A stretch of 64,000 bases of DNA from Escherichia coli (GTDB taxonomy: Bacteria; Pseudomonadota; Gammaproteobacteria; Enterobacterales; Enterobacteriaceae), in the NCBI RefSeq assembly GCF_044647545.1, contig NZ_CP172818.1. One strand, 5' to 3'. Both the position numbers and the translations under genes were made by a program. Shown here one piece after another: positions 3,166 through 54,978 of this stretch. How positions within the stretch are numbered: the stretch's first letter is position 1; every line of letters begins with the position of its first letter. The notes beneath the pieces were generated by a model. It saw only the letters and a list, made by a program, of their open reading frames with translations. It was not told the origin of the DNA and did not search any database.

Positions 3166-3648
<483 letters not shown>

Positions 3649-3654
3649 CCGCGC

Positions 3655-3660
3655 ATTATA
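3655..3660 (-). promoter_or_regulatory. Candidate -10 hexamer of the S10 operon promoter
   Basis: Minus strand reads TATAAT followed by a GC-rich discriminator (gcgcggg); no recognisable -35 lies upstream, where the sequence is an anomalous GC-rich tract. Confidence 0.45.
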
Positions 3661-3848
3661 CTGGGGGGGCGGGCCGCGCCGCGCGGGGGCGCTTGTTCGC
3701 CCTCTCTGCACGGCTGGTGTCCGGCAGTTCGGCCCGTCTCTGGTCGGTTTTTCTGGGTGAAAGGTGGCGGCCGCGCGATTTACGCGTGCCCGCCCCCCCC
3801 CCCTTACTCTGGTCAGGTCTTTTGTTCTATCATGGGAGTTTGGGCTAA

Positions 3849-4170
3849 TCGATTCCCCTGATCGGTTTAGCCGATGCGTTATGGGGGGCGATTATTGGTT
3901 ACGGCACATTCGCTGTCATTTACTGGGGGTATCGCATTCTGCGTCATAAAGAAGGATTAGGCTATGGTGATGTGAAGTTTCTCGCCGCCCCCTTGGTGCC
4001 TGGCATACATCCTATCGACTGGTTTTCCTTGCTGCCTTCATTGCTTGCCGAGCCGTAGTTCATTGGTCTGCTCATGAGAGGAAAAGAGTCATTAAAAAAT
4101 CTCCCGCTGCCGTTGTGGGAGCATCTTCTGCGCGAACTGACGGGTTTCGTTGTAGGCTGGGATAGTTATG
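3849..4170 (+). pseudogene. gspO: Decayed 3' remnant of a prepilin peptidase (GspO/PilD family) gene; no start codon, frameshifted
   Basis: Open frame 3849..4058 translates ...LADALWGAIIGYGTFAVIYWGYRILRHKEGLGYGDVKFLAA, containing the conserved GxGDVKxLAA motif; the expected following LGAW is encoded 2 nt out of frame after a C5 run at 3987..3991. Confidence 0.55.
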
Positions 4171-4181
4171 CTGGCAGGCCG

Positions 4182-4658
4182 TTAATCTTTAACTTTTATT
4201 TGTGATTGCAGGTAATTTTGTAGACCGATTTTACCGATGAGATCCAGCTCAGTTTCGAGCCAGTCAATATGACCTTCTTCATCGGCAAGGATCTCGATCA
4301 TCATATCACGGCTAACATAGTCATGAACGCTGTCGGCATACGCGATAGCCTCACGGAGATCCTTAGCGCCTTCCAGTTCTAATCGCAGGTCGGATTGCAG
4401 CATCTCCTCGACATCTTCACCAATCCCCAGTTTGCCTAAATCCTGTAAGTTGGGGATTCCTTCTAAAAACAAAATACGCTCGATATATTTATCAGCGTGT
4501 TTCATCTCATCGATAGATTCATGGTATTCGACGTCATTGAGACGCATCAGGCCCCAGTTTTTAAACATCCGGGCATGGAGAAAATACTGATTGATTGCGA
4601 CAAGCTCATTTCCCAATAGTTTATTGAGATAATTTATGATTTTAACATCACCTTTCAT
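4182..4658 (-). CDS. bfr: Bacterioferritin
   Basis: ORF contains [37 protein letters not shown]...; start set at the internal Met for a 158-aa product. Confidence 0.9.
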
Positions 4659-4924: not shown

Positions 4925-5034
4925 GATTGCTCCCGTTCAAATTCTGCGCAAAGTGTAAATGAGAATGGTTATGATTACAATAGCACAATTTTATTTGCGC
5001 CATAGTTCAGCGAGGAACGACAAAACGGGCAAAA

Positions 5035-21056: not shown

Positions 21057-21689
21057 ATGGTGCTTGGCAAACCGCAAACAGACCCGACTCTCGAATGGTT
21101 CTTGTCTCATTGCCACATTCATAAGTACCCATCCAAGAGCACGCTTATTCACCAGGGTGAAAAAGCGGAAACGCTGTACTACATCGTTAAAGGCTCTGTG
21201 GCAGTGCTGATCAAAGACGAAGAGGGTAAAGAAATGATCCTCTCCTATCTGAATCAGGGTGATTTTATTGGCGAACTGGGCCTGTTTGAAGAGGGCCAGG
21301 AACGTAGCGCATGGGTACGTGCGAAAACCGCCTGTGAAGTGGCTGAAATTTCGTACAAAAAATTTCGCCAATTGATTCAGGTAAACCCGGACATTCTGAT
21401 GCGTCTGTCTGCACAGATGGCGCGTCGTCTGCAAGTCACTTCAGAGAAAGTGGGCAACCTGGCGTTCCTCGACGTGACGGGCCGCATTGCACAGACTCTG
21501 CTGAACCTGGCAAAACAACCAGATGCTATGACTCACCCGGACGGTATGCAAATCAAAATTACCCGTCAGGAAATCGGTCAGATTGTCGGCTGTTCTCGTG
21601 AAACCGTGGGACGCATTCTGAAGATGCTGGAAGATCAGAACCTGATCTCCGCACACGGTAAAACCATCGTCGTTTACGGCACTCGTTAA
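21057..21689 (+). CDS. crp: cAMP receptor protein (global transcription factor CRP)
   Basis: 210 aa [53 protein letters not shown]... with C-terminal [15 protein letters not shown]. Confidence 0.97.
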
Positions 21690-34554: not shown

Positions 34555-34619
34555 GTCTCTGACAGAAATTGGCTGATGCTGATTTATTGCCTGCGCCCTC
34601 GGGTTTCCGGGGTCCAGAA

Positions 34620-46952: not shown

Positions 46953-48041
46953 TTACGCTGATTGACAATCGGCAATGGCGTTAAGAACAAGCTCGTGCGA
47001 AACGCCGCTGCGAACTTCACTCTTACCAATTGCCAACGGAAGAATTAAGCGCATCTCTCCCGCAAGGACTTTCTTGTCACGCAGCATATGCGGTAAATAC
47101 GCCTGCGCAGACATTTCGCGCGGCCCATTGACCGGTAACCCAGCCCGCGTGAGCAGGGTTATAATACGCTGCGTTTCGGCAGAACTAAACTGCCCGAGAC
47201 GTTCCGACGTCCGCGCCGCCATCACCATACCCGCAGCAACCGCTTCACCGTGTAACCAATTGCCATACCCCATTTCAGCTTCAATGGCATGACCAAAGGT
47301 GTGTCCCAGATTCAGTAAAGCACGTAACCCGGTTTCGCGCTCGTCGGCGGCGACAACTTCTGCCTTCAGTTCACAACAACGGCGAATACAGTACGCCATT
47401 GCCGGACCGTCCAGACGCAACAACGCATCCAGATTCTCTTCCAGCCAGTTAAAAAACGCACCGTCAAGAATAATGCCGTATTTGATGACTTCTGCCAGCC
47501 CCGACGCTAACTCACGCGGGGGAAGCGTTTTCAGACAGTCGAGATCCACCACCACTGAAGCAGGCTGGTAGAACGCGCCAATCATGTTTTTACCGAGGGG
47601 ATGGTTGACCGCAGTTTTGCCGCCAACGGAGGAATCGACCTGCGACAGTAACGTCGTCGGGACTTGAATGAAACGTACACCGCGCTGATAACTCGCCGCC
47701 GCAAAGCCGGTCAGATCGCCCACTACGCCGCCGCCAAGCGCCACCAGCGTAGTATCGCGACCATGCGGCTTTTGTAACAACGCCGTAAAGACGGTATCGA
47801 GTACAGCCAGGCTTTTATACTGCTCGCCGTCAGGGAGGATAACGCTATCGACGTTAACACCCGCCTGTTCAAGTACGCCGCGGACCTTATCGAGATACAG
47901 AGGAGCCAGGGTTTCGTTGGTAACCAACATGACCTGCTCGCCCGATTTCAGCGGTAAGAATGAAGCTGGTTCATTAAACAAACCAGATGCGATGGTAATT
48001 GGGTAACTACGTTCCCCGAGAGTAACGACAATCCTCTCCAT
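46953..48041 (-). CDS. aroB: 3-dehydroquinate synthase
   Basis: 362 aa [34 protein letters not shown]... Confidence 0.95.
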
Positions 48042-48097
48042 AACGCGACATCCACCTTAATTACTGTACCCGCAGACGAGTGTATATAAAGCCAGAA

Positions 48098-48619
48098 TTA
48101 GTTGCTTTCCAGCATGTGAATAATCTGGTTTGCGACCACTTTAGCGCTTTGATCATCAGTACGAATGGTCACGTCGGCAATCTCTTCATACAGCGGATTG
48201 CGTTCATTGGCCAACGCTTCCAGAACTTCACGCGGCGGTGTTTCAACGTGCAGCAACGGGCGTTTTTTATCACGCTGCGTGCGTGCAAGTTGCTTTTCGA
48301 TGGTCGTTTCAAGATAAACGACAACGCCACGTGCGGAAAGACGGTTACGCGTTTCGCGGGATTTCACAGAGCCGCCGCCAGTAGCCAGCACAATACCCTG
48401 TTTCTCGGTCAACTCATTGATGACCTTTTCTTCGCGATCGCGGAAGCCTTCTTCGCCTTCTAAATCGAAAACCCAGCCCACATCAGCTCCGGTTCGTTTC
48501 TCAATCTCTTGATCGGAATCGTAAAATTCCATATTGAGTTGTTGAGCTAACTGGCGCCCAATAGTGCTTTTTCCGGCACCCATAGGCCCAACCAGAAAGA
48601 TATTGCGTTTCTCTGCCAT
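48098..48619 (-). CDS. aroK: Shikimate kinase 1
   Basis: ORF contains [36 protein letters not shown]...; start set at this Met (173 aa). Confidence 0.92.
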
Positions 48620-49019
48620 TTTTTCGGTACTACTAAGACTATTCGTTAATGATAAACCCGCTTCGCTCAGAGAGCGCCGCAGGACATGAACTGAAACCTC
48701 ATAAGATATTGCGAGAGTCAGACTGAAAATTATCTCAATACTCCAGCGGGTTTGGCAACTGAATAAATCACCCATCCCTCTGCATATCTGGTCGCTGCAA
48801 GCGCGCTGCCTTGCTACCACCGCTCTGGCGATAAATCACCGGGTAAGATTAGCGTAAAAAAGACAGCAAAATGCCGCCTGAATGATAAATCATCATCATG
48901 GAACGCAGGCAGCGAAGAGCACCAACTCTCAAATCGGTACTCCTTGTATGCTAAATACCTGCGCGCGTCAAATAGATGAAACACGTTCAGCGTAAAAACA
49001 TTACCGCTTTTACGGCTGT

Positions 49020-50258
49020 TTACTCACTGGAAACCAGTCGTGGCGTGATAAACACCACTAACTCGCGTCGTTCATCTTCTTTTCCGTCATGACGAAATAA
49101 TTGCCCGAACCAGGGAATGTCGCCAAGCAACGGTACGCTATCCTGACCCGATTTATTTTTACGGGTAAAAATGCCGCCCAGCGCCAACGTTTCTCCGCTT
49201 TTGACCTCGACCTGCGTTTCGATCTCCTGCTTATCAATCGCCAGCACTTCGCCATCTGCCTGCTGTAGCACCTGCCCCGGAACGTTCTGGCTGATGTGTA
49301 ATTTCAGCCGGATGCGACCTTTTTGTAACACCGTGGGCGTGACCTCCATCCCCAGGACGGCCTCTTTAAATTCCACCGACGTCGCGCCACTTTCCCCGCT
49401 GGAAACCTGATATGGAATTTCGCTCCCCTGTTTAATGCTGGCAGGCTGAAGATGTGAGGCCAGCAGACGCGGACTGGCGATAATATCCAGCTGCTGTTTT
49501 TGTTCGAGCGCGGAAAGCTCAAGATCCAGTAAACGTCCGTTGATGCGTCCAATGTTAAAACCGACATGCGTTGTCGCCGTCGCTACGGAGAGGTCGCTGC
49601 CAAGCGTGGTGACTTGCCCAACGCCACCAGCTTGTTGCGCATCAGCCAACGTCCATTTCACGCCTAACTCACGCAAACTTTTTTCATTAATGGTGACAAT
49701 ATGCGCCGAGAGCTCAACCTGCCCGACCGGCAGATCCATTTGCGCTACCCACTGTTCAAGCGTGCTTAACGCCGTTTTGTTATCTCGCAGCAAAAGGCGA
49801 TTGGTGCGTTTATCGACGGTCATACTCCCTTTGGCACTCAGTAGCTTCTCCCCAGCTTTCGCCAGCTCTCCGGCGTCGGCGTATTGCAGAGTAATATTGC
49901 GATTTTCCAGCGGCAGATTTGCCTGCGCCCGCGCCTGCTCCGCTTCCTGACGGGCGATATTGTCATTCTGCCAGGCAATGGAATGCACTGAGAGAATGTT
50001 GCCCTCCTGGCGCGTTATCAGTCCGGCGCTTTTCACTACAGTTTGTAGTGCCTGCTTCCAGGGAACATCTGTTAGATGTAACGACACCGTACCGCTGACG
50101 TCTGGCGACACCACCAGGTTCAACTTCTCCTGTTCAGCCAGCGCCTGCAACACCTGAGCTACCGGAACGTCATCCACCATCAGTGTCACTTTTTGCGGCT
50201 TTGCCGCCTGTACGCCGGGTATCAGCATCAACAGTAGTGCGGCTATCCATTGCTTCAT
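49020..50258 (-). CDS. hofQ: Secretin-family outer-membrane protein HofQ (competence / type IV pilus-like DNA uptake)
   Basis: 412 aa ORF with signal peptide and C-terminal secretin domain (...VVFITPRLV). Confidence 0.88.
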   Translation of the reverse strand: MKQWIAALLLMLIPGVQAAKPQKVTLMVDDVPVAQVLQALAEQEKLNLVVSPDVSGTVSLHLTDVPWKQALQTVVKSAGLITRQEGNILSVHSIAWQNDNIARQEAEQARAQANLPLENRNITLQYADAGELAKAGEKLLSAKGSMTVDKRTNRLLLRDNKTALSTLEQWVAQMDLPVGQVELSAHIVTINEKSLRELGVKWTLADAQQAGGVGQVTTLGSDLSVATATTHVGFNIGRINGRLLDLELSALEQKQQLDIIASPRLLASHLQPASIKQGSEIPYQVSSGESGATSVEFKEAVLGMEVTPTVLQKGRIRLKLHISQNVPGQVLQQADGEVLAIDKQEIETQVEVKSGETLALGGIFTRKNKSGQDSVPLLGDIPWFGQLFRHDGKEDERRELVVFITPRLVSSE

Positions 50259-50574
50259 TTGTATCTCCTTGCCGTTGCCACAACCATTGTGGCGGTTCGC
50301 AGTTTGTCCCGGTACCCAGCGTTAGTACGTCTGGCGTCAGCTGTAAAATTGTCCAGCCGTTTTCCAGCACATCGTTTTGCTGCACCCGTCGCCATTTCTT
50401 TTGCCCGTCTTTTATTACACCGATGATGCGCTCGCCTCGCCCTACTATCCCCTGATAGCGCCACTGGCTAAGTTCGCTAATCCGGCATAGATCTTCCGGC
50501 GGTTTAAAAGGGTCACGCATACCGGTTAAAAGGCACAATGCAATACCTGCCAACAACCAGCGTTTACCCCTCAT
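50170..50574 (-). CDS. hofP: DNA utilisation protein HofP (pilus-assembly PilP-like lipoprotein)
   Basis: ORF ...MRGKRWLLAGIALCLLTGMRDPF...; start at internal Met; overlaps hofQ start. Confidence 0.75.
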   Translation of the reverse strand: MRGKRWLLAGIALCLLTGMRDPFKPPEDLCRISELSQWRYQGIVGRGERIIGVIKDGQKKWRRVQQNDVLENGWTILQLTPDVLTLGTGTNCEPPQWLWQRQGDTNEAMDSRTTVDADTRRTGGKAAKSDTDGG

Positions 50575-51004
50575 GCGGCGTCTCCAGTTGTAGCGTGAAC
50601 AAAAGATCATCACCTTCCACGCTTAACGAAAAACGGCTCACGCTGACGTTGCGCTCTGCCAGCCGTGTAAATGCCGACGGCACTGCTTCCCACAGCGTTT
50701 TCAACGCCAACTCACCTCCCTGCGCGGATGGATGCCAGGAAACCAGTTGCGCGCCGGGCAACTGAAAATCCAGTGGCGAAAAGGGCAGCGTTTTTTCTTC
50801 GCTGAAGGGAGTGGTGTCTACCAGGCGATACAGTGCGGCCCACTGCTGGTGATGACTCGCCCGTAGTCGAATTAATGCGTCGCTCTCTTCCTGGTGTGTC
50901 GATGACAGAAAAATGAGCGTAACTAACATCATCAACCAGAATGCCCAGCAAAGCTGGCGGAGGCGGGGTGATGCGGCGAACCACCAGTCAAAGAGCATGT
51001 CCAT
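50564..51004 (-). CDS. hofO: DNA utilisation protein HofO (PilO-like)
   Basis: 146 aa ORF with N-terminal TM helix; synteny. Confidence 0.75.
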   Translation of the reverse strand: MDMLFDWWFAASPRLRQLCWAFWLMMLVTLIFLSSTHQEESDALIRLRASHHQQWAALYRLVDTTPFSEEKTLPFSPLDFQLPGAQLVSWHPSAQGGELALKTLWEAVPSAFTRLAERNVSVSRFSLSVEGDDLLFTLQLETPHEG

Positions 51005-51527
51005 CGCTAACCTTCCTTGTTAACTGATACTCAAATTGCCAGCGTCCCTGCGCATCCTGCTGCGTGCCCCCCCGCTGATTGAGATGAAAAAAAGCATCCT
51101 GACAGAGTGACGTTTCCAGCGCGTTTAACGCGGTAATGCTTGTTGTCAGCCCCTTGATCTCCAGCGTTCCCTGCTGCCAGCTTATCGTTGTCAGCCAGGC
51201 GTGCTCGGGTAAAAGCGCCGCCAGTGCTTCCAGCGCAGATTGCCAGTCGCGGGTAAATTGTCGCTGGCGCTGCCTTTGCAAACGCTGTTCGCGTAACTGC
51301 TGTTGCTCCAGCAAACGTGGTTTCGTTATCTGTAAGCTGTGGGCAAGTTGTTGTTCCGCCTGAAGCAAAACGGCGTTTACGCGTGCTTCGGCGTTGCTTG
51401 TCAGACGCAGTATTAGCGTAATCCCGACGGCCAGCAGCAGAGGCGCAACGAACATCAGCAACCAGAAACGCAGAAAAGCGGTCCGGCGTTGCTGTCGCCA
51501 GGGCAAAAAATTAATTGGCGGGTTCAT
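50988..51527 (-). CDS. hofN: DNA utilisation protein HofN (PilN-like)
   Basis: 179 aa ORF with N-terminal TM helix and coiled-coil; synteny. Confidence 0.75.
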   Translation of the reverse strand: MNPPINFLPWRQQRRTAFLRFWLLMFVAPLLLAVGITLILRLTSNAEARVNAVLLQAEQQLAHSLQITKPRLLEQQQLREQRLQRQRQRQFTRDWQSALEALAALLPEHAWLTTISWQQGTLEIKGLTTSITALNALETSLCQDAFFHLNQRGGTQQDAQGRWQFEYQLTRKVSDGHAL

Positions 51528-52306
51528 CAGTTCGCCTTCCCTAGCGCCAGCCCCAGCGCGATGGCAAAGTCTCCACCTGGCGGCGGTAGCGGCGGCTGAC
51601 GAACAGAAACGGCCTCCCAGGGATCAAATCCGCCTTCGCCACATAGCGCGACGCTTTCGGGATCAACGGATAACGCTGCCGCCAGCTCCTTCGCGCTAGT
51701 CATCCCCACCGCCAGTTTGCGCCCCCAGCGATAGCGCGTCGCCCACAGCCACTGTTCGTTATCACGCCAGGCCAGACATTGCTGATGAGAAGGTAAAAAA
51801 GGCAGGAATCGCTGTAATGCACTGGCATCCGGGGTGATCGCGCTAACATGAACACGCAACCTTTCTGCCAGAGTAAGCAGCGTTGCCAGCTCTTTGCTTT
51901 GCGCGGCAGTCACGTTATAGGCGGGACTGAGTGAGTCTTCGCTGTAATCGAAGCGCAGGGAGTCCGGATCCATATCCAGTTCACGGGCCATCGTCCCGGA
52001 CAGCCAGGCCGTTTGCTCCCGCTCACCAAGGGACATCGACGGGCGCGGAAATGACCGCTGTAATGTGCGACTGGCGGGAAACGCCAACATAATGTGATGA
52101 CGCTGCGGCAGTTCGCGGCTCCACGGTAACAACGTGTTAGCCAGCCGCTGCGCATCAACAATCCGCCCATCTTTGATAATGTCATTCTCCAGCGGCAACC
52201 GCCACCAGCGTTGCAAAAAGCATTCTTTTGCGCCCCGCACGATCGCAACCGCTACCGCTTCTTGCTGTTGTAAATGCAAACCAATTTGCCAGATCTTAAA
52301 TGCCAT
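51527..52306 (-). CDS. hofM: DNA utilisation protein HofM (PilM-like actin-fold ATPase)
   Basis: ORF ...MAFKIWQIGLHLQQQEAVAVAIV...; start at internal Met (259 aa); divergent from mrcA. Confidence 0.8.
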   Translation of the reverse strand: MAFKIWQIGLHLQQQEAVAVAIVRGAKECFLQRWWRLPLENDIIKDGRIVDAQRLANTLLPWSRELPQRHHIMLAFPASRTLQRSFPRPSMSLGEREQTAWLSGTMARELDMDPDSLRFDYSEDSLSPAYNVTAAQSKELATLLTLAERLRVHVSAITPDASALQRFLPFLPSHQQCLAWRDNEQWLWATRYRWGRKLAVGMTSAKELAAALSVDPESVALCGEGGFDPWEAVSVRQPPLPPPGGDFAIALGLALGKAN

Positions 52307-52401
52307 TGTGATGATCTCCTTATCACCCGTCACTCTGACGGGTATATCAATGCGTCTGGCTTGCCTTTATACTACCGCGCGTTTGTTTATAAACTGCCCA
52401 A

Positions 52402-54978
52402 ATGAAACTAAATGGGAAATTTCCAGTGAAGTTCGTAAAGTATTTTTTGATCCTTGCAGTCTGTTGCATTCTGCTGGGAGCAGGCTCGATTTATGGCCTA
52501 TACCGCTACATCGAGCCACAACTGCCGGATGTGGCGACATTAAAAGATGTTCGCCTGCAAATTCCGATGCAGATTTACAGCGCCGATGGCGAGCTGATTG
52601 CTCAATACGGTGAGAAACGTCGTATTCCGGTTACGTTGGATCAAATCCCGCCGGAGATGGTGAAAGCCTTTATCGCGACGGAAGACAGCCGCTTCTACGA
52701 GCATCACGGCGTTGACCCGGTGGGGATCTTCCGTGCGGCAAGTGTGGCGCTGTTCTCCGGCCACGCGTCACAAGGGGCGAGTACCATTACCCAGCAGCTG
52801 GCGAGAAACTTCTTCCTCAGTCCAGAACGCACGCTGATGCGTAAGATTAAGGAAGTCTTCCTCGCGATTCGCATTGAACAGTTGCTGACGAAAGACGAGA
52901 TCCTCGAGCTTTATCTGAACAAGATTTACCTCGGTTACCGCGCCTATGGTGTCGGTGCTGCGGCACAAGTCTATTTCGGTAAAACGGTCGACCAACTGAC
53001 GCTGAACGAAATGGCGGTGATAGCCGGGCTGCCGAAAGCGCCTTCCACCTTTAATCCGCTCTACTCAATGGATCGTGCCGTCGCGCGGCGTAACGTCGTA
53101 CTGTCGCGGATGCTGGATGAAGGGTATATCACCCAACAACAGTTCGATCAGACACGCACTGAGGCGATTAACGCTAACTATCACGCGCCGGAGATTGCTT
53201 TCTCTGCGCCGTACCTGAGCGAAATGGTGCGCCAGGAGATGTATAACCGTTATGGCGAAAGTGCCTATGAAGACGGTTATCGCATTTACACCACCATCAC
53301 CCGCAAAGTACAGCAGGCCGCACAGCAGGCAGTACGTAATAACGTGCTGGACTACGACATGCGCCACGGCTATCGCGGCCCGGCAAATGTGCTGTGGAAA
53401 GTGGGCGAATCGGCGTGGGATAACAACAAGATTACCGATACGTTGAAGGCGCTGCCGACCTATGGTCCGCTGCTGCCTGCCGCAGTCACCAGCGCCAATC
53501 CTCAGGAAGCGACGGCGATGCTGGCGGACGGGTCGACCGTCGCATTGAGTATGGAAGGCGTTCGCTGGGCGCGTCCTTACCGTTCGGATACTCAGCAGGG
53601 ACCGACGCCGCGTAAAGTGACCGATGTTTTGCAAACGGGTCAGCAAATCTGGGTTCGTCAGGTTGGCGATGCATGGTGGCTGGCACAAGTGCCGGAAGTG
53701 AACTCGGCGCTGGTGTCGATCAATCCGCAAAACGGTGCCGTTATGGCGCTGGTCGGTGGCTTTGATTTCAATCAGAGCAAGTTTAACCGCGCCACCCAGG
53801 CACTGCGTCAGGTGGGTTCCAACATCAAACCGTTCCTCTACACCGCGGCGATGGATAAAGGTCTGACGCTGGCAAGTATGTTGAACGATGTGCCAATTTC
53901 CCGCTGGGATGCAGGTGCCGGTTCTGACTGGCAGCCGAAGAACTCACCACCGCAGTATGCCGGTCCAATTCGCTTACGTCAGGGACTGGGCCAGTCGAAA
54001 AACGTGGTGATGGTACGCGCAATGCGGGCGATGGGCGTCGACTACGCTGCAGAATATCTGCAACGCTTCGGCTTCCCGGCGCAAAACATTGTCCACACCG
54101 AATCGCTGGCGCTGGGTTCAGCGTCCTTCACCCCAATGCAGGTGGCGCGCGGCTACGCGGTAATGGCGAACGGCGGCTTCCTGGTGGACCCGTGGTTTAT
54201 CAGCAAAATTGAAAACGATCAGGGCGGCGTGATTTTCGAAGCGAAACCGAAAGTAGCCTGCCCGGAATGCGATATTCCGGTGATTTACGGTGATACGCAG
54301 AAATCGAACGTGCTGGAAAATAACGATGTTGAAGATGTCGCTATCTCCCGCGAGCAGCAGAATGTTTCTGTGCCAATGCCGCAGCTGGAGCAGGCAAATC
54401 AGGCGTTAGTGGCGAAGACTGGCGCGCAGGAGTACGCACCGCACGTCATCAACACACCGCTGGCATTCCTGATTAAGAGTGCCTTGAACACCAATATTTT
54501 TGGTGAACCAGGCTGGCAGGGTACTGGCTGGCGAGCAGGTCGTGATTTACAACGGCATGATATAGGCGGAAAAACGGGTACCACTAACAGTTCGAAAGAT
54601 GCGTGGTTCTCGGGTTACGGTCCGGGCGTTGTGACCTCGGTCTGGATTGGCTTTGATGATCACCGTCGTAATCTCGGTCATACAACGGCTTCCGGAGCGA
54701 TTAAAGATCAGATCTCAGGTTACGAAGGCGGTGCCAAGAGTGCCCAACCTGCATGGGACGCTTATATGAAAGCCGTTCTTGAAGGTGTGCCGGAGCAGCC
54801 GCTGACGCCGCCGCCGGGTATTGTGACGGTGAATATCGATCGCAGCACCGGGCAGTTAGCTAATGGTGGCAACAGCCGCGAAGAGTATTTCATCGAAGGT
54901 ACGCAGCCGACACAACAGGCGGTGCACGAGGTGGGAACGACCATTATCGATAATGGCGAGGCACAGGAATTGTTCTGA
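52402..54978 (+). CDS. mrcA: Penicillin-binding protein 1A (bifunctional glycosyltransferase/transpeptidase)
   Basis: 858 aa ORF (true start may be the GTG 8 codons in, giving 850 aa) with EDSRFYEHHG glycosyltransferase motif and SxxK, SxN, KTG transpeptidase motifs. Confidence 0.93.
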   Translation: MKLNGKFPVKFVKYFLILAVCCILLGAGSIYGLYRYIEPQLPDVATLKDVRLQIPMQIYSADGELIAQYGEKRRIPVTLDQIPPEMVKAFIATEDSRFYEHHGVDPVGIFRAASVALFSGHASQGASTITQQLARNFFLSPERTLMRKIKEVFLAIRIEQLLTKDEILELYLNKIYLGYRAYGVGAAAQVYFGKTVDQLTLNEMAVIAGLPKAPSTFNPLYSMDRAVARRNVVLSRMLDEGYITQQQFDQTRTEAINANYHAPEIAFSAPYLSEMVRQEMYNRYGESAYEDGYRIYTTITRKVQQAAQQAVRNNVLDYDMRHGYRGPANVLWKVGESAWDNNKITDTLKALPTYGPLLPAAVTSANPQEATAMLADGSTVALSMEGVRWARPYRSDTQQGPTPRKVTDVLQTGQQIWVRQVGDAWWLAQVPEVNSALVSINPQNGAVMALVGGFDFNQSKFNRATQALRQVGSNIKPFLYTAAMDKGLTLASMLNDVPISRWDAGAGSDWQPKNSPPQYAGPIRLRQGLGQSKNVVMVRAMRAMGVDYAAEYLQRFGFPAQNIVHTESLALGSASFTPMQVARGYAVMANGGFLVDPWFISKIENDQGGVIFEAKPKVACPECDIPVIYGDTQKSNVLENNDVEDVAISREQQNVSVPMPQLEQANQALVAKTGAQEYAPHVINTPLAFLIKSALNTNIFGEPGWQGTGWRAGRDLQRHDIGGKTGTTNSSKDAWFSGYGPGVVTSVWIGFDDHRRNLGHTTASGAIKDQISGYEGGAKSAQPAWDAYMKAVLEGVPEQPLTPPPGIVTVNIDRSTGQLANGGNSREEYFIEGTQPTQQAVHEVGTTIIDNGEAQELF

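Follow-up and report, generated by a model that had tools for sequence, protein, structure and literature searches.

The 64,000-nucleotide stretch of the Escherichia coli contig NZ_CP172818.1 (assembly GCF_044647545.1) that was analysed here, referred to as the window, carries on its minus strand the five genes hofM, hofN, hofO, hofP and hofQ, which an earlier reading of the DNA (the original prediction) had described as an intact DNA-uptake operon of the competence or type IV pilus kind. With high confidence (a probability of roughly 0.93) the locus represents the canonical, already described E. coli hofMNOPQ operon (formerly yrfDCBA-hofQ), the counterpart of the type IVa pilMNOPQ genes and of Haemophilus comABCDE. 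The analysis covered gene integrity, protein families, predicted folds and synteny, and also where the published control fragment lies and how well it is conserved. The genes are arranged as follows:

51527..52306, minus strand: hofM, 259 amino acids, predicted short PilM-like cytoplasmic protein with an actin fold
50988..51527, minus strand: hofN, 179 amino acids, predicted PilN-like bitopic inner-membrane protein, N-terminus MNPPINFLPWR
50564..51004, minus strand: hofO, 146 amino acids, predicted PilO/GspM-like bitopic inner-membrane protein
50170..50574, minus strand: hofP, 134 amino acids, predicted PilP-like periplasmic protein, its last 89 nucleotides overlapping the start of hofQ
49020..50258, minus strand: hofQ, 412 amino acids, ATG to TAA, predicted outer-membrane secretin with the putative signal peptide MKQWIAALLLMLIPGVQA

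The five open reading frames between 49020 and 52306 contain no internal stops, and the predicted full-length genes with overlapping boundaries were recovered correct to the base, the overlaps comprising 1 nt (hofM/hofN), 17 nt (hofN/hofO), 11 nt (hofO/hofP) and 89 nt (hofP/hofQ). A K-12-like strain and the B2 strain NU14 have hof genes of identical length and coordinates; the comparison with both revealed neither premature stops nor frameshifts, and relative to the K-12-like strain each hof gene carries 3-24 substitutions and no indel. The RefSeq annotation of E. coli FDAARGOS_497 shows exactly these five genes at the locus. HofN of the present strain is named by PGAP only as “PilN domain-containing protein” and not as HofN. 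Since the NCBIfam hidden Markov models (HMMs) match only HofQ among the hof proteins and neither of the two HofN alleles, this difference in naming must stem from a rule other than an HMM cut-off.

The K-12 operon (yrfD-yrfC-yrfB-yrfA-hofQ; b3395-b3391) has the same genes, lengths, overlaps and flanks at about 98% nucleotide identity, and the spacer between hofM and mrcA, the first 215 nt of mrcA and the spacer between hofQ and aroK are identical to those of the window. The two operons differ by 31 amino acid substitutions (4 in HofQ, 3 in HofP, 8 in HofO, 11 in HofN and 5 in HofM).

As predicted, the operon is divergent from mrcA, from which it is separated by a spacer of 119 bp. Its placement “downstream of aroKB” applies to plus-strand coordinates only: on the minus strand the order is hofM-N-O-P-Q, a 400-bp spacer and aroK-aroB-damX-dam, so that hof is transcriptionally upstream. 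The arrangement igaA-nudE-mrcA, divergent hofMNOPQ and aroK-aroB was also found in Salmonella, Kosakonia, E. fergusonii, Citrobacter, Intestinirhabdus, Yokenella and Huaxiibacter, while in Lelliottia the core from mrcA through hofMNOPQ to aroK-aroB is present and the genes beyond mrcA differ. All eight of these other Enterobacteriaceae lineages have five open frames, overlapping genes and a spacer of 119-120 bp. In Pseudomonas, presumably, ponA is likewise divergent from pilM and aroK is located downstream.

Protein families and predicted folds

The original prediction had assigned each protein to a family of the type IV pilus machinery, and these assignments were borne out to different degrees. 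HofQ is, judged by its sequence matches, a textbook PilQ-type secretin. It matched the Pfam families Secretin (161 bits, 1.8e-47), Secretin_N (the N1 domain; 45 bits) and STN (the N0 domain; 37 bits), each of which cleared its cut-off, as well as the NCBIfam models NF007851 HofQ (856 bits, cut-off 598) and TIGR02515 PilQ (448 bits). In the PDB it matched PilQ of V. cholerae (6w6m, E 2e-74) and also the structure of the HofQ N-terminal domains (2y3m). Its N-terminus (MKQWIAALLLMLIPGVQA-AKP) resembles a signal peptide when the sequence is judged by eye. HofQ differs from the protein of the K-12-like strain in 4 amino acids, with a ratio of nonsynonymous to synonymous substitution rates (dN/dS) of 0.06-0.10.

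HofP matched the Pfam family HofP (PF10748, 5e-79). The core of its AlphaFold2 model (residues 30-105) was predicted with a local confidence (pLDDT) of about 85-90, and the ten best Foldseek matches in the PDB were PilP or the HR domain of the GspC-family protein LspC (E 8e-4 to 0.15, TMt of at most 0.70). A profile search gave PilP of M. xanthus as top match (E 0.043). These matches argue with moderate strength for a PilP-like beta-sandwich domain of the HR type, as had been suggested. Across nine Enterobacteriaceae species the motif RDPF and the cysteines C30 and C92 are invariant. With regard to the lipoprotein signal of PilP, the putative lipobox cysteine of HofP is not conserved: the possible lipobox of the E. 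coli protein (IALC, residues 11-14) is atypical, with L at position -1, and C14 is replaced by L in most other species.

The PilN-like nature of HofN was confirmed by a match to Pfam PilN (39.8 bits, cut-off 22.8; 4.8e-10) and by a nine-species profile which matched M. xanthus PilN (3jc8, E 8.5e-6, residues 1-141). The N-terminal motif of PilN (I-N-L-L-P-W-R type) binds PilM (PDB 2ych, 5eou); in the corresponding NxLPWR motif of HofN the residues N6, L8, P9, W10 and R11 are invariant in the nine species.

The proposed PilO-like character of HofO rests only on Pfam, namely on the family PF25319 (“HofO EspM-like domain”, 88.8 bits, 2.5e-25), and on weak T2SSM matches of the orthologues in Lelliottia and Huaxiibacter; HofO itself matched neither Pfam PilO nor any PDB sequence. 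HofO may be described as PilO/GspM-like.

The weakest of the claims concerned the actin fold of HofM. HofM did not match PF11104 (PilM_2), and its only Pfam match was T2SSL with 17.3 bits, below the cut-off of 25.5 bits. However, an AlphaFold2 model built from 28 orthologues (pLDDT 86, pTM 0.83) matched PilM in Foldseek searches (5eoy, 5eou and 2ych; E 1e-13 to 1e-11, with probability 1.0 at E 3e-13), followed by cytoplasmic GspL/EpsL and FtsA, so that an actin-like fold is supported at the level of the model. Coverage by HofM is better for cytoplasmic GspL (TMt 0.61-0.67), to which it is also closer in size, than for PilM (0.42-0.56). Since orthologues at about 50% identity are assigned to PF11104 in precomputed annotations, HofM is homologous to PilM, belonging, however, to a short and divergent subgroup.

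Single-sequence PDB searches with HofM, HofN, HofO and HofP returned nothing, and profiles and predicted folds were needed instead. The predicted folds provide structural support for HofM as a short PilM/GspL-like protein and for HofP as a PilP-like protein. Taken as a set, the proteins correspond to the secretin, the PilP-, PilO- and PilN-like proteins and the PilM-like actin fold of the PilMNOPQ systems of P. aeruginosa, M. xanthus and Thermus. They differ from these in that HofM and HofP share only 7-21% identity with their PDB homologues, and in that the PilQ chains comprise 714-901 amino acids versus 412 in HofQ, which matches their C-terminal parts only.

Control region between hofM and mrcA

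The sequence upstream of hofM contains the following features:

52307..52425, no strand assigned: divergent intergenic region between hofM and mrcA, 119 bp, identical to the K-12-like strain, 1 difference to NU14, nearly invariant in nine Enterobacteriaceae
52316..52321, minus strand: Shine-Dalgarno sequence AAGGAG, 9 nt before the hofM ATG
52325..52343, no strand assigned: perfect 7-bp palindrome ACCCGTC-AGAGT-GACGGGT, 3 nt upstream of the hofM Shine-Dalgarno sequence
52426..54978, plus strand: mrcA (PBP1a), GTG start, divergent neighbour whose 5' end appears to carry the hof control region
52457..52582, no strand assigned: published yrfD (hofM) promoter fragment binding CRP in vitro
52472..52493, minus strand: candidate proximal CRP-S site TAAATCGAGCCTGCTCCCAGCA (mrcA codons 16-23)
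52553..52574, minus strand: candidate distal CRP-S site ATCTGCATCGGAATTTGCAGGC (mrcA codons 43-50), core TGCAT-N6-TTGCA with C6 and G17

The stretch TAAGGAGATC, which includes the Shine-Dalgarno sequence, is almost invariant in nine species, and this conservation argues for a hofM start at the ATG (52306) and not at the upstream GTG (52333).

A CRP-S site had been expected in the intergenic region. In a scan for TGCGA-N6-TCGCA that allowed 2 mismatches, no match fell in 52307-52425 (28 matches in the whole window versus 46 expected by chance), and an intergenic CRP-S site was consequently rejected. Cameron and Redfield 2006 (PMC1635313) predicted two CRP-S sites in the K-12 promoter of yrfD (hofM), placed one of them at -246 and reported a weak in vitro shift by CRP of a PCR fragment with both sites, as well as a 16-fold induction of yrfD by Sxy that depends on CRP and cyclic AMP (cAMP). 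The primers of this fragment (yrfDF/yrfDR; PMC1635313) map to the window with 0 mismatches at 52457-52582, which is wholly within the mrcA coding sequence, and neither the K-12-like strain nor NU14 differs from the window in this fragment.

The two CRP-S candidates were placed by this primer mapping, the “-246” of the published figure legend and a scan for half-sites. The proximal candidate has the best core match in the fragment (6/8), and its core half-sites are invariant in nine species. The 3' edge of the distal candidate lies 247 nt from the hofM ATG, in agreement with the published “-246” site; in the nine species its left half is invariant and its right half varies in distant genera. 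A CRP-S site comprises 22 bp, with C or G expected at position 6 and G or C at position 17; both candidates obey the rule that position 6 is never T (PMC1635313). From these positions we infer that the CRP-S operators lie inside the 5' end of mrcA and not in the spacer, and the interior of mrcA is where they should be sought. The CRP-S site of H. influenzae likewise overlaps an upstream open reading frame (PMC1635313).

Conservation in this control region far exceeds that of the hof proteins. About 150 nt (roughly 52345-52493, from the palindrome to mrcA codon 23, or to about 52500 with codons 1-25 included) are almost invariant in nine Enterobacteriaceae. Synonymous-codon identity in mrcA codons 1-25 is 0.87 between E. 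coli and Salmonella versus 0.57 gene-wide, and 0.78 versus 0.38 in the three-way comparison with Kosakonia. This near-invariance, which includes synonymous sites of mrcA, is consistent with overlapping regulatory functions; it could equally reflect promoter or translation-initiation signals of mrcA.

Escherichia, Salmonella, Citrobacter and Intestinirhabdus share the palindrome; its loop varies among them, and one pair shows a compensatory change from C-G to U-A. A covariation test was not significant (71% of the cells paired; 240 of 500 shuffles equal on covariation), and the fold of the hofM leader has no unusual overall structure (z = -0.12). The palindrome could form a 5' stem-loop of either of the divergent mRNAs or serve as a protein-binding site.

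The position of the candidate operators raises a further possibility, which is doubtful and drawn by analogy. Hof transcripts driven by Sxy and CRP would start within mrcA and run antisense over its ribosome binding site, its 5' untranslated region and its probable promoter, and may thereby couple induction of the uptake pilus to down-regulation of PBP1a, as an enterobacterial counterpart of AsponA, a validated antisense RNA of P. aeruginosa against the 5' end of ponA (PMC4180829). An Rfam scan of 48000-53000 gave asponA (RF02812) as its sole match, at 52555-52580 on the minus strand, with 14.7 bits versus a gathering threshold of 113 (E 0.39). Membership in the asponA family was rejected; this sub-threshold match is most likely due to the PBP1a coding sequence, which is conserved and lies on the other strand. 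As a separate observation, it coincides with the distal CRP-S candidate. AsponA is retained here purely as a possible functional analogue, that is, as an antisense transcript directed toward pilM or hofM. This coupling would be the only mildly novel angle of the locus.

Function, constraint and distribution

A role of the operon in the use of DNA as a nutrient and its control by Sxy and CRP, both named in the original prediction, have been published for K-12 (PMC1635313, PMC3330819). By homology, multimers of HofQ would form an outer-membrane secretin channel that serves the action of a PpdD pseudopilus and admits double-stranded DNA to the periplasm. The beta-domain of HofP would couple the N-terminal domain of the secretin to an inner-membrane heterodimer of HofN and HofO, while the actin fold of HofM would clamp the cytoplasmic NxLPWR motif of HofN and link this scaffold to the HofB/HofC motor and platform. 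DNA brought to the periplasm by the PpdD fibre would be taken over by homologues of ComEA/ComEC or by nucleases. The operon would be nearly silent in laboratory culture and be switched on by cAMP-CRP and Sxy at weak CRP-S operators within the mrcA 5' end. In the present strain, assembly, DNA transport and expression of the machine may be presumed to follow this scheme.

In agreement with such a role, a hofQ::kan strain has lost Sxy-dependent uptake of DNA (PMC3330819), and hofQ mRNA is higher in DNA-containing media (PMC9273947). The comABCDE genes of H. influenzae and the pilMNOPQ genes of V. cholerae share the gene order, the roles and the regulation by CRP-S sites and Sxy/TfoX. These two species are naturally transformable, whereas E. 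coli takes up DNA only with forced Sxy expression (PMC3330819), and Enterobacteriaceae have two predicted CRP-S sites instead of one (PMC1635313).

It might also be argued that the main role is another one, such as adhesion by a PpdD type IV pilus resembling the haemorrhagic coli pilus, or another secretin-dependent function, with uptake as a side activity. The components make up a PilMNOPQ alignment and secretin module of the generic kind, whose sequence has no DNA-specific feature beyond the N-terminal domains of HofQ, natural transformation of the chromosome has so far been observed only with artificial Sxy expression (PMC3330819), and work on uropathogenic E. coli deals with hofQ in virulence (PMC2649431). 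However, Sxy-dependent uptake needs hofQ (PMC3330819), and the CRP-S/Sxy regulon comprises this operon as well as the other competence homologues (PMC1635313). Uptake and pilus roles are compatible and the content of the window does not discriminate between them; a main role other than DNA uptake appears extremely improbable.

Several observations weigh against the assignment of the locus to a canonical, functional uptake module. Firstly, hofM, hofN, hofO and hofP are far less constrained than their neighbours. The pooled dN/dS of the hof genes within E. coli is 0.23-0.26 versus 0.025-0.044 for the neighbouring genes; per gene it is 0.19-0.76 for hofM, hofN, hofO and hofP versus 0.02-0.08 for the flanking genes, and it is highest for the fastest-evolving gene hofO (0.48-0.76), these being ratios from small counts and, for hofP, confounded by overlapping frames. 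Between E. coli and Salmonella the protein identity is 66% for HofM, 47.5% for HofN, 46.5% for HofO, 61% for HofP and 86% for HofQ, and 93%, 97% and 93% for the neighbours MrcA, AroK and AroB, respectively. Secondly, HofN differs from the K-12 protein in 11 of its 179 residues, including R142C and S146F. Thirdly, HofM is about 100 amino acids shorter than PilM (259 versus about 350), and therefore its ATP binding and motor coupling may differ from those of PilM. Fourthly, the two CRP-S candidates are at chance level as raw matches (cores of 5-6/8 occur at 0.3-2% of positions), so that their standing derives from the K-12 experiments and from conservation.

Finally, the window lacks the genes for the rest of the machine (ppdD-hofBC, prepilin peptidase, comEA, comEC, dprA and sxy). 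With those for the pilin, the ATPase, ComEA/ComEC and Sxy located elsewhere, hofMNOPQ is necessary but not sufficient for uptake, and the term “intact” stands for the five genes and not for a whole uptake machine. The gsp locus for type II secretion, described as degraded in the same window, is indeed so: gsp and chiA are absent from the rpsJ-bfr interval (about 3480-4200; also about 5015-5030). Between rpsJ and bfr FDAARGOS_497 has only a 155-amino-acid prepilin-peptidase reading frame of the gspO/hofD type; the corresponding patch of the window shows a cluster of small indels and a deletion of roughly 157 bp and has no comparable open frame, i.e. this remnant is degraded. Processing of PpdD needs a prepilin peptidase, and another copy (pppA), located outside the window, would have to serve.

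Taken to its end, the weak constraint would mean a decaying relic, in which the frames are still open while hofM, hofN, hofO and hofP drift, no working machine is made and only hofQ, or nothing, is under selection. In addition to the dN/dS ratios, all 3 substitutions in hofP relative to the K-12-like strain are non-synonymous, truncated or fused forms of HofM (for example of 192 and 201 amino acids, or HofM-HofN fusions of 438 amino acids) occur in public E. coli and Shigella data, and transcription of the operon is poor or undetectable in LB medium (PMC1635313). Nevertheless, dN/dS is below 1 for every gene with enough substitutions, the K-12 alleles are functional in uptake assays (PMC3330819), and the NxLPWR motif of HofN and the RDPF motif and two cysteines of HofP are invariant. 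Furthermore, frames, overlaps, Shine-Dalgarno sequence and the 119-120-bp spacer are kept across nine species in which HofN, HofO and HofP go down to 33-50% identity; this retention across diverged species is unexpected without selection for the proteins. It seems very unlikely that the operon is such a relic, and the canonical uptake operon remains the favoured interpretation. The measure of weak constraint on hofM, hofN, hofO and hofP is a by-product of the analysis.

A 3.55-kb operon query matched 5425 of 5426 complete E. coli genomes at a coverage of at least 80%, and in the sole partial case found, which also counts on the side of decay, most of hofQ is lost at a rearrangement that joins the locus to barA. 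The allele group of the present strain is a minority (158 of 5426 genomes at an identity of at least 99%, the rest at 95-99%). The identification of the operon is correct; the operon itself is known, near-universal in E. coli and of low interest, its intactness being the rule in the species and no exception worth flagging. The core module of a cryptic competence system, with its outer-membrane and scaffold parts, is retained in this strain as it is in almost all E. coli.

Flanking sequence and remaining window

Downstream of hofQ and elsewhere in the window the following features are of relevance:

49003-49016 and 48861-48879, minus strand: two terminator-like hairpins past the hofQ stop, found by consensus scan, upstream of the aroK promoter-like site
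48098-48619, minus strand: aroK, 400 bp past the hofQ stop
21057-21689, plus strand: crp, intact, 210 amino acids, gene of the hof activator

The crp gene, about 30 kb from the operon, is the sole partner of hofMNOPQ in the window.

The spacer between hofQ and aroK (48620-49019, 400 bp) has no annotated feature and no difference to the K-12-like strain and NU14; in 5424 of 5425 E. coli genomes its identity is 99% or more, the adjoining hof genes being mostly 95-99% identical. Across genera it keeps two blocks, TTGACG...AAGGAGTACCGATTTGAG just past hofQ and the last ~160 nt, which contain a promoter-like site (TTGCCA-18-GATAAT, 48729-48758) and the aroK leader. Both blocks probably represent the promoters and the leader of the dam operon. 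The middle part of the spacer is likewise invariant within the species. The matches of the promoter and terminator scans occurred at chance frequency, and with 3 terminators found versus 4.8 expected by chance the consensus scan provides weak evidence for the hairpins. A 27-codon reading frame with a TTG start after a conserved AAGGAG in the spacer was rejected, its amino acids being unconserved in Salmonella beyond three residues.

From 34614 onward the window and the E. coli FDAARGOS_497 chromosome agree at 100% identity, and leftward only three small patches differ. One of these (34587-34614), at the yhfL-yhfS junction, shows five single-base deletions relative to FDAARGOS_497 while the neighbouring ~30 kb are identical; local divergence or a difference between the assemblies may account for it.

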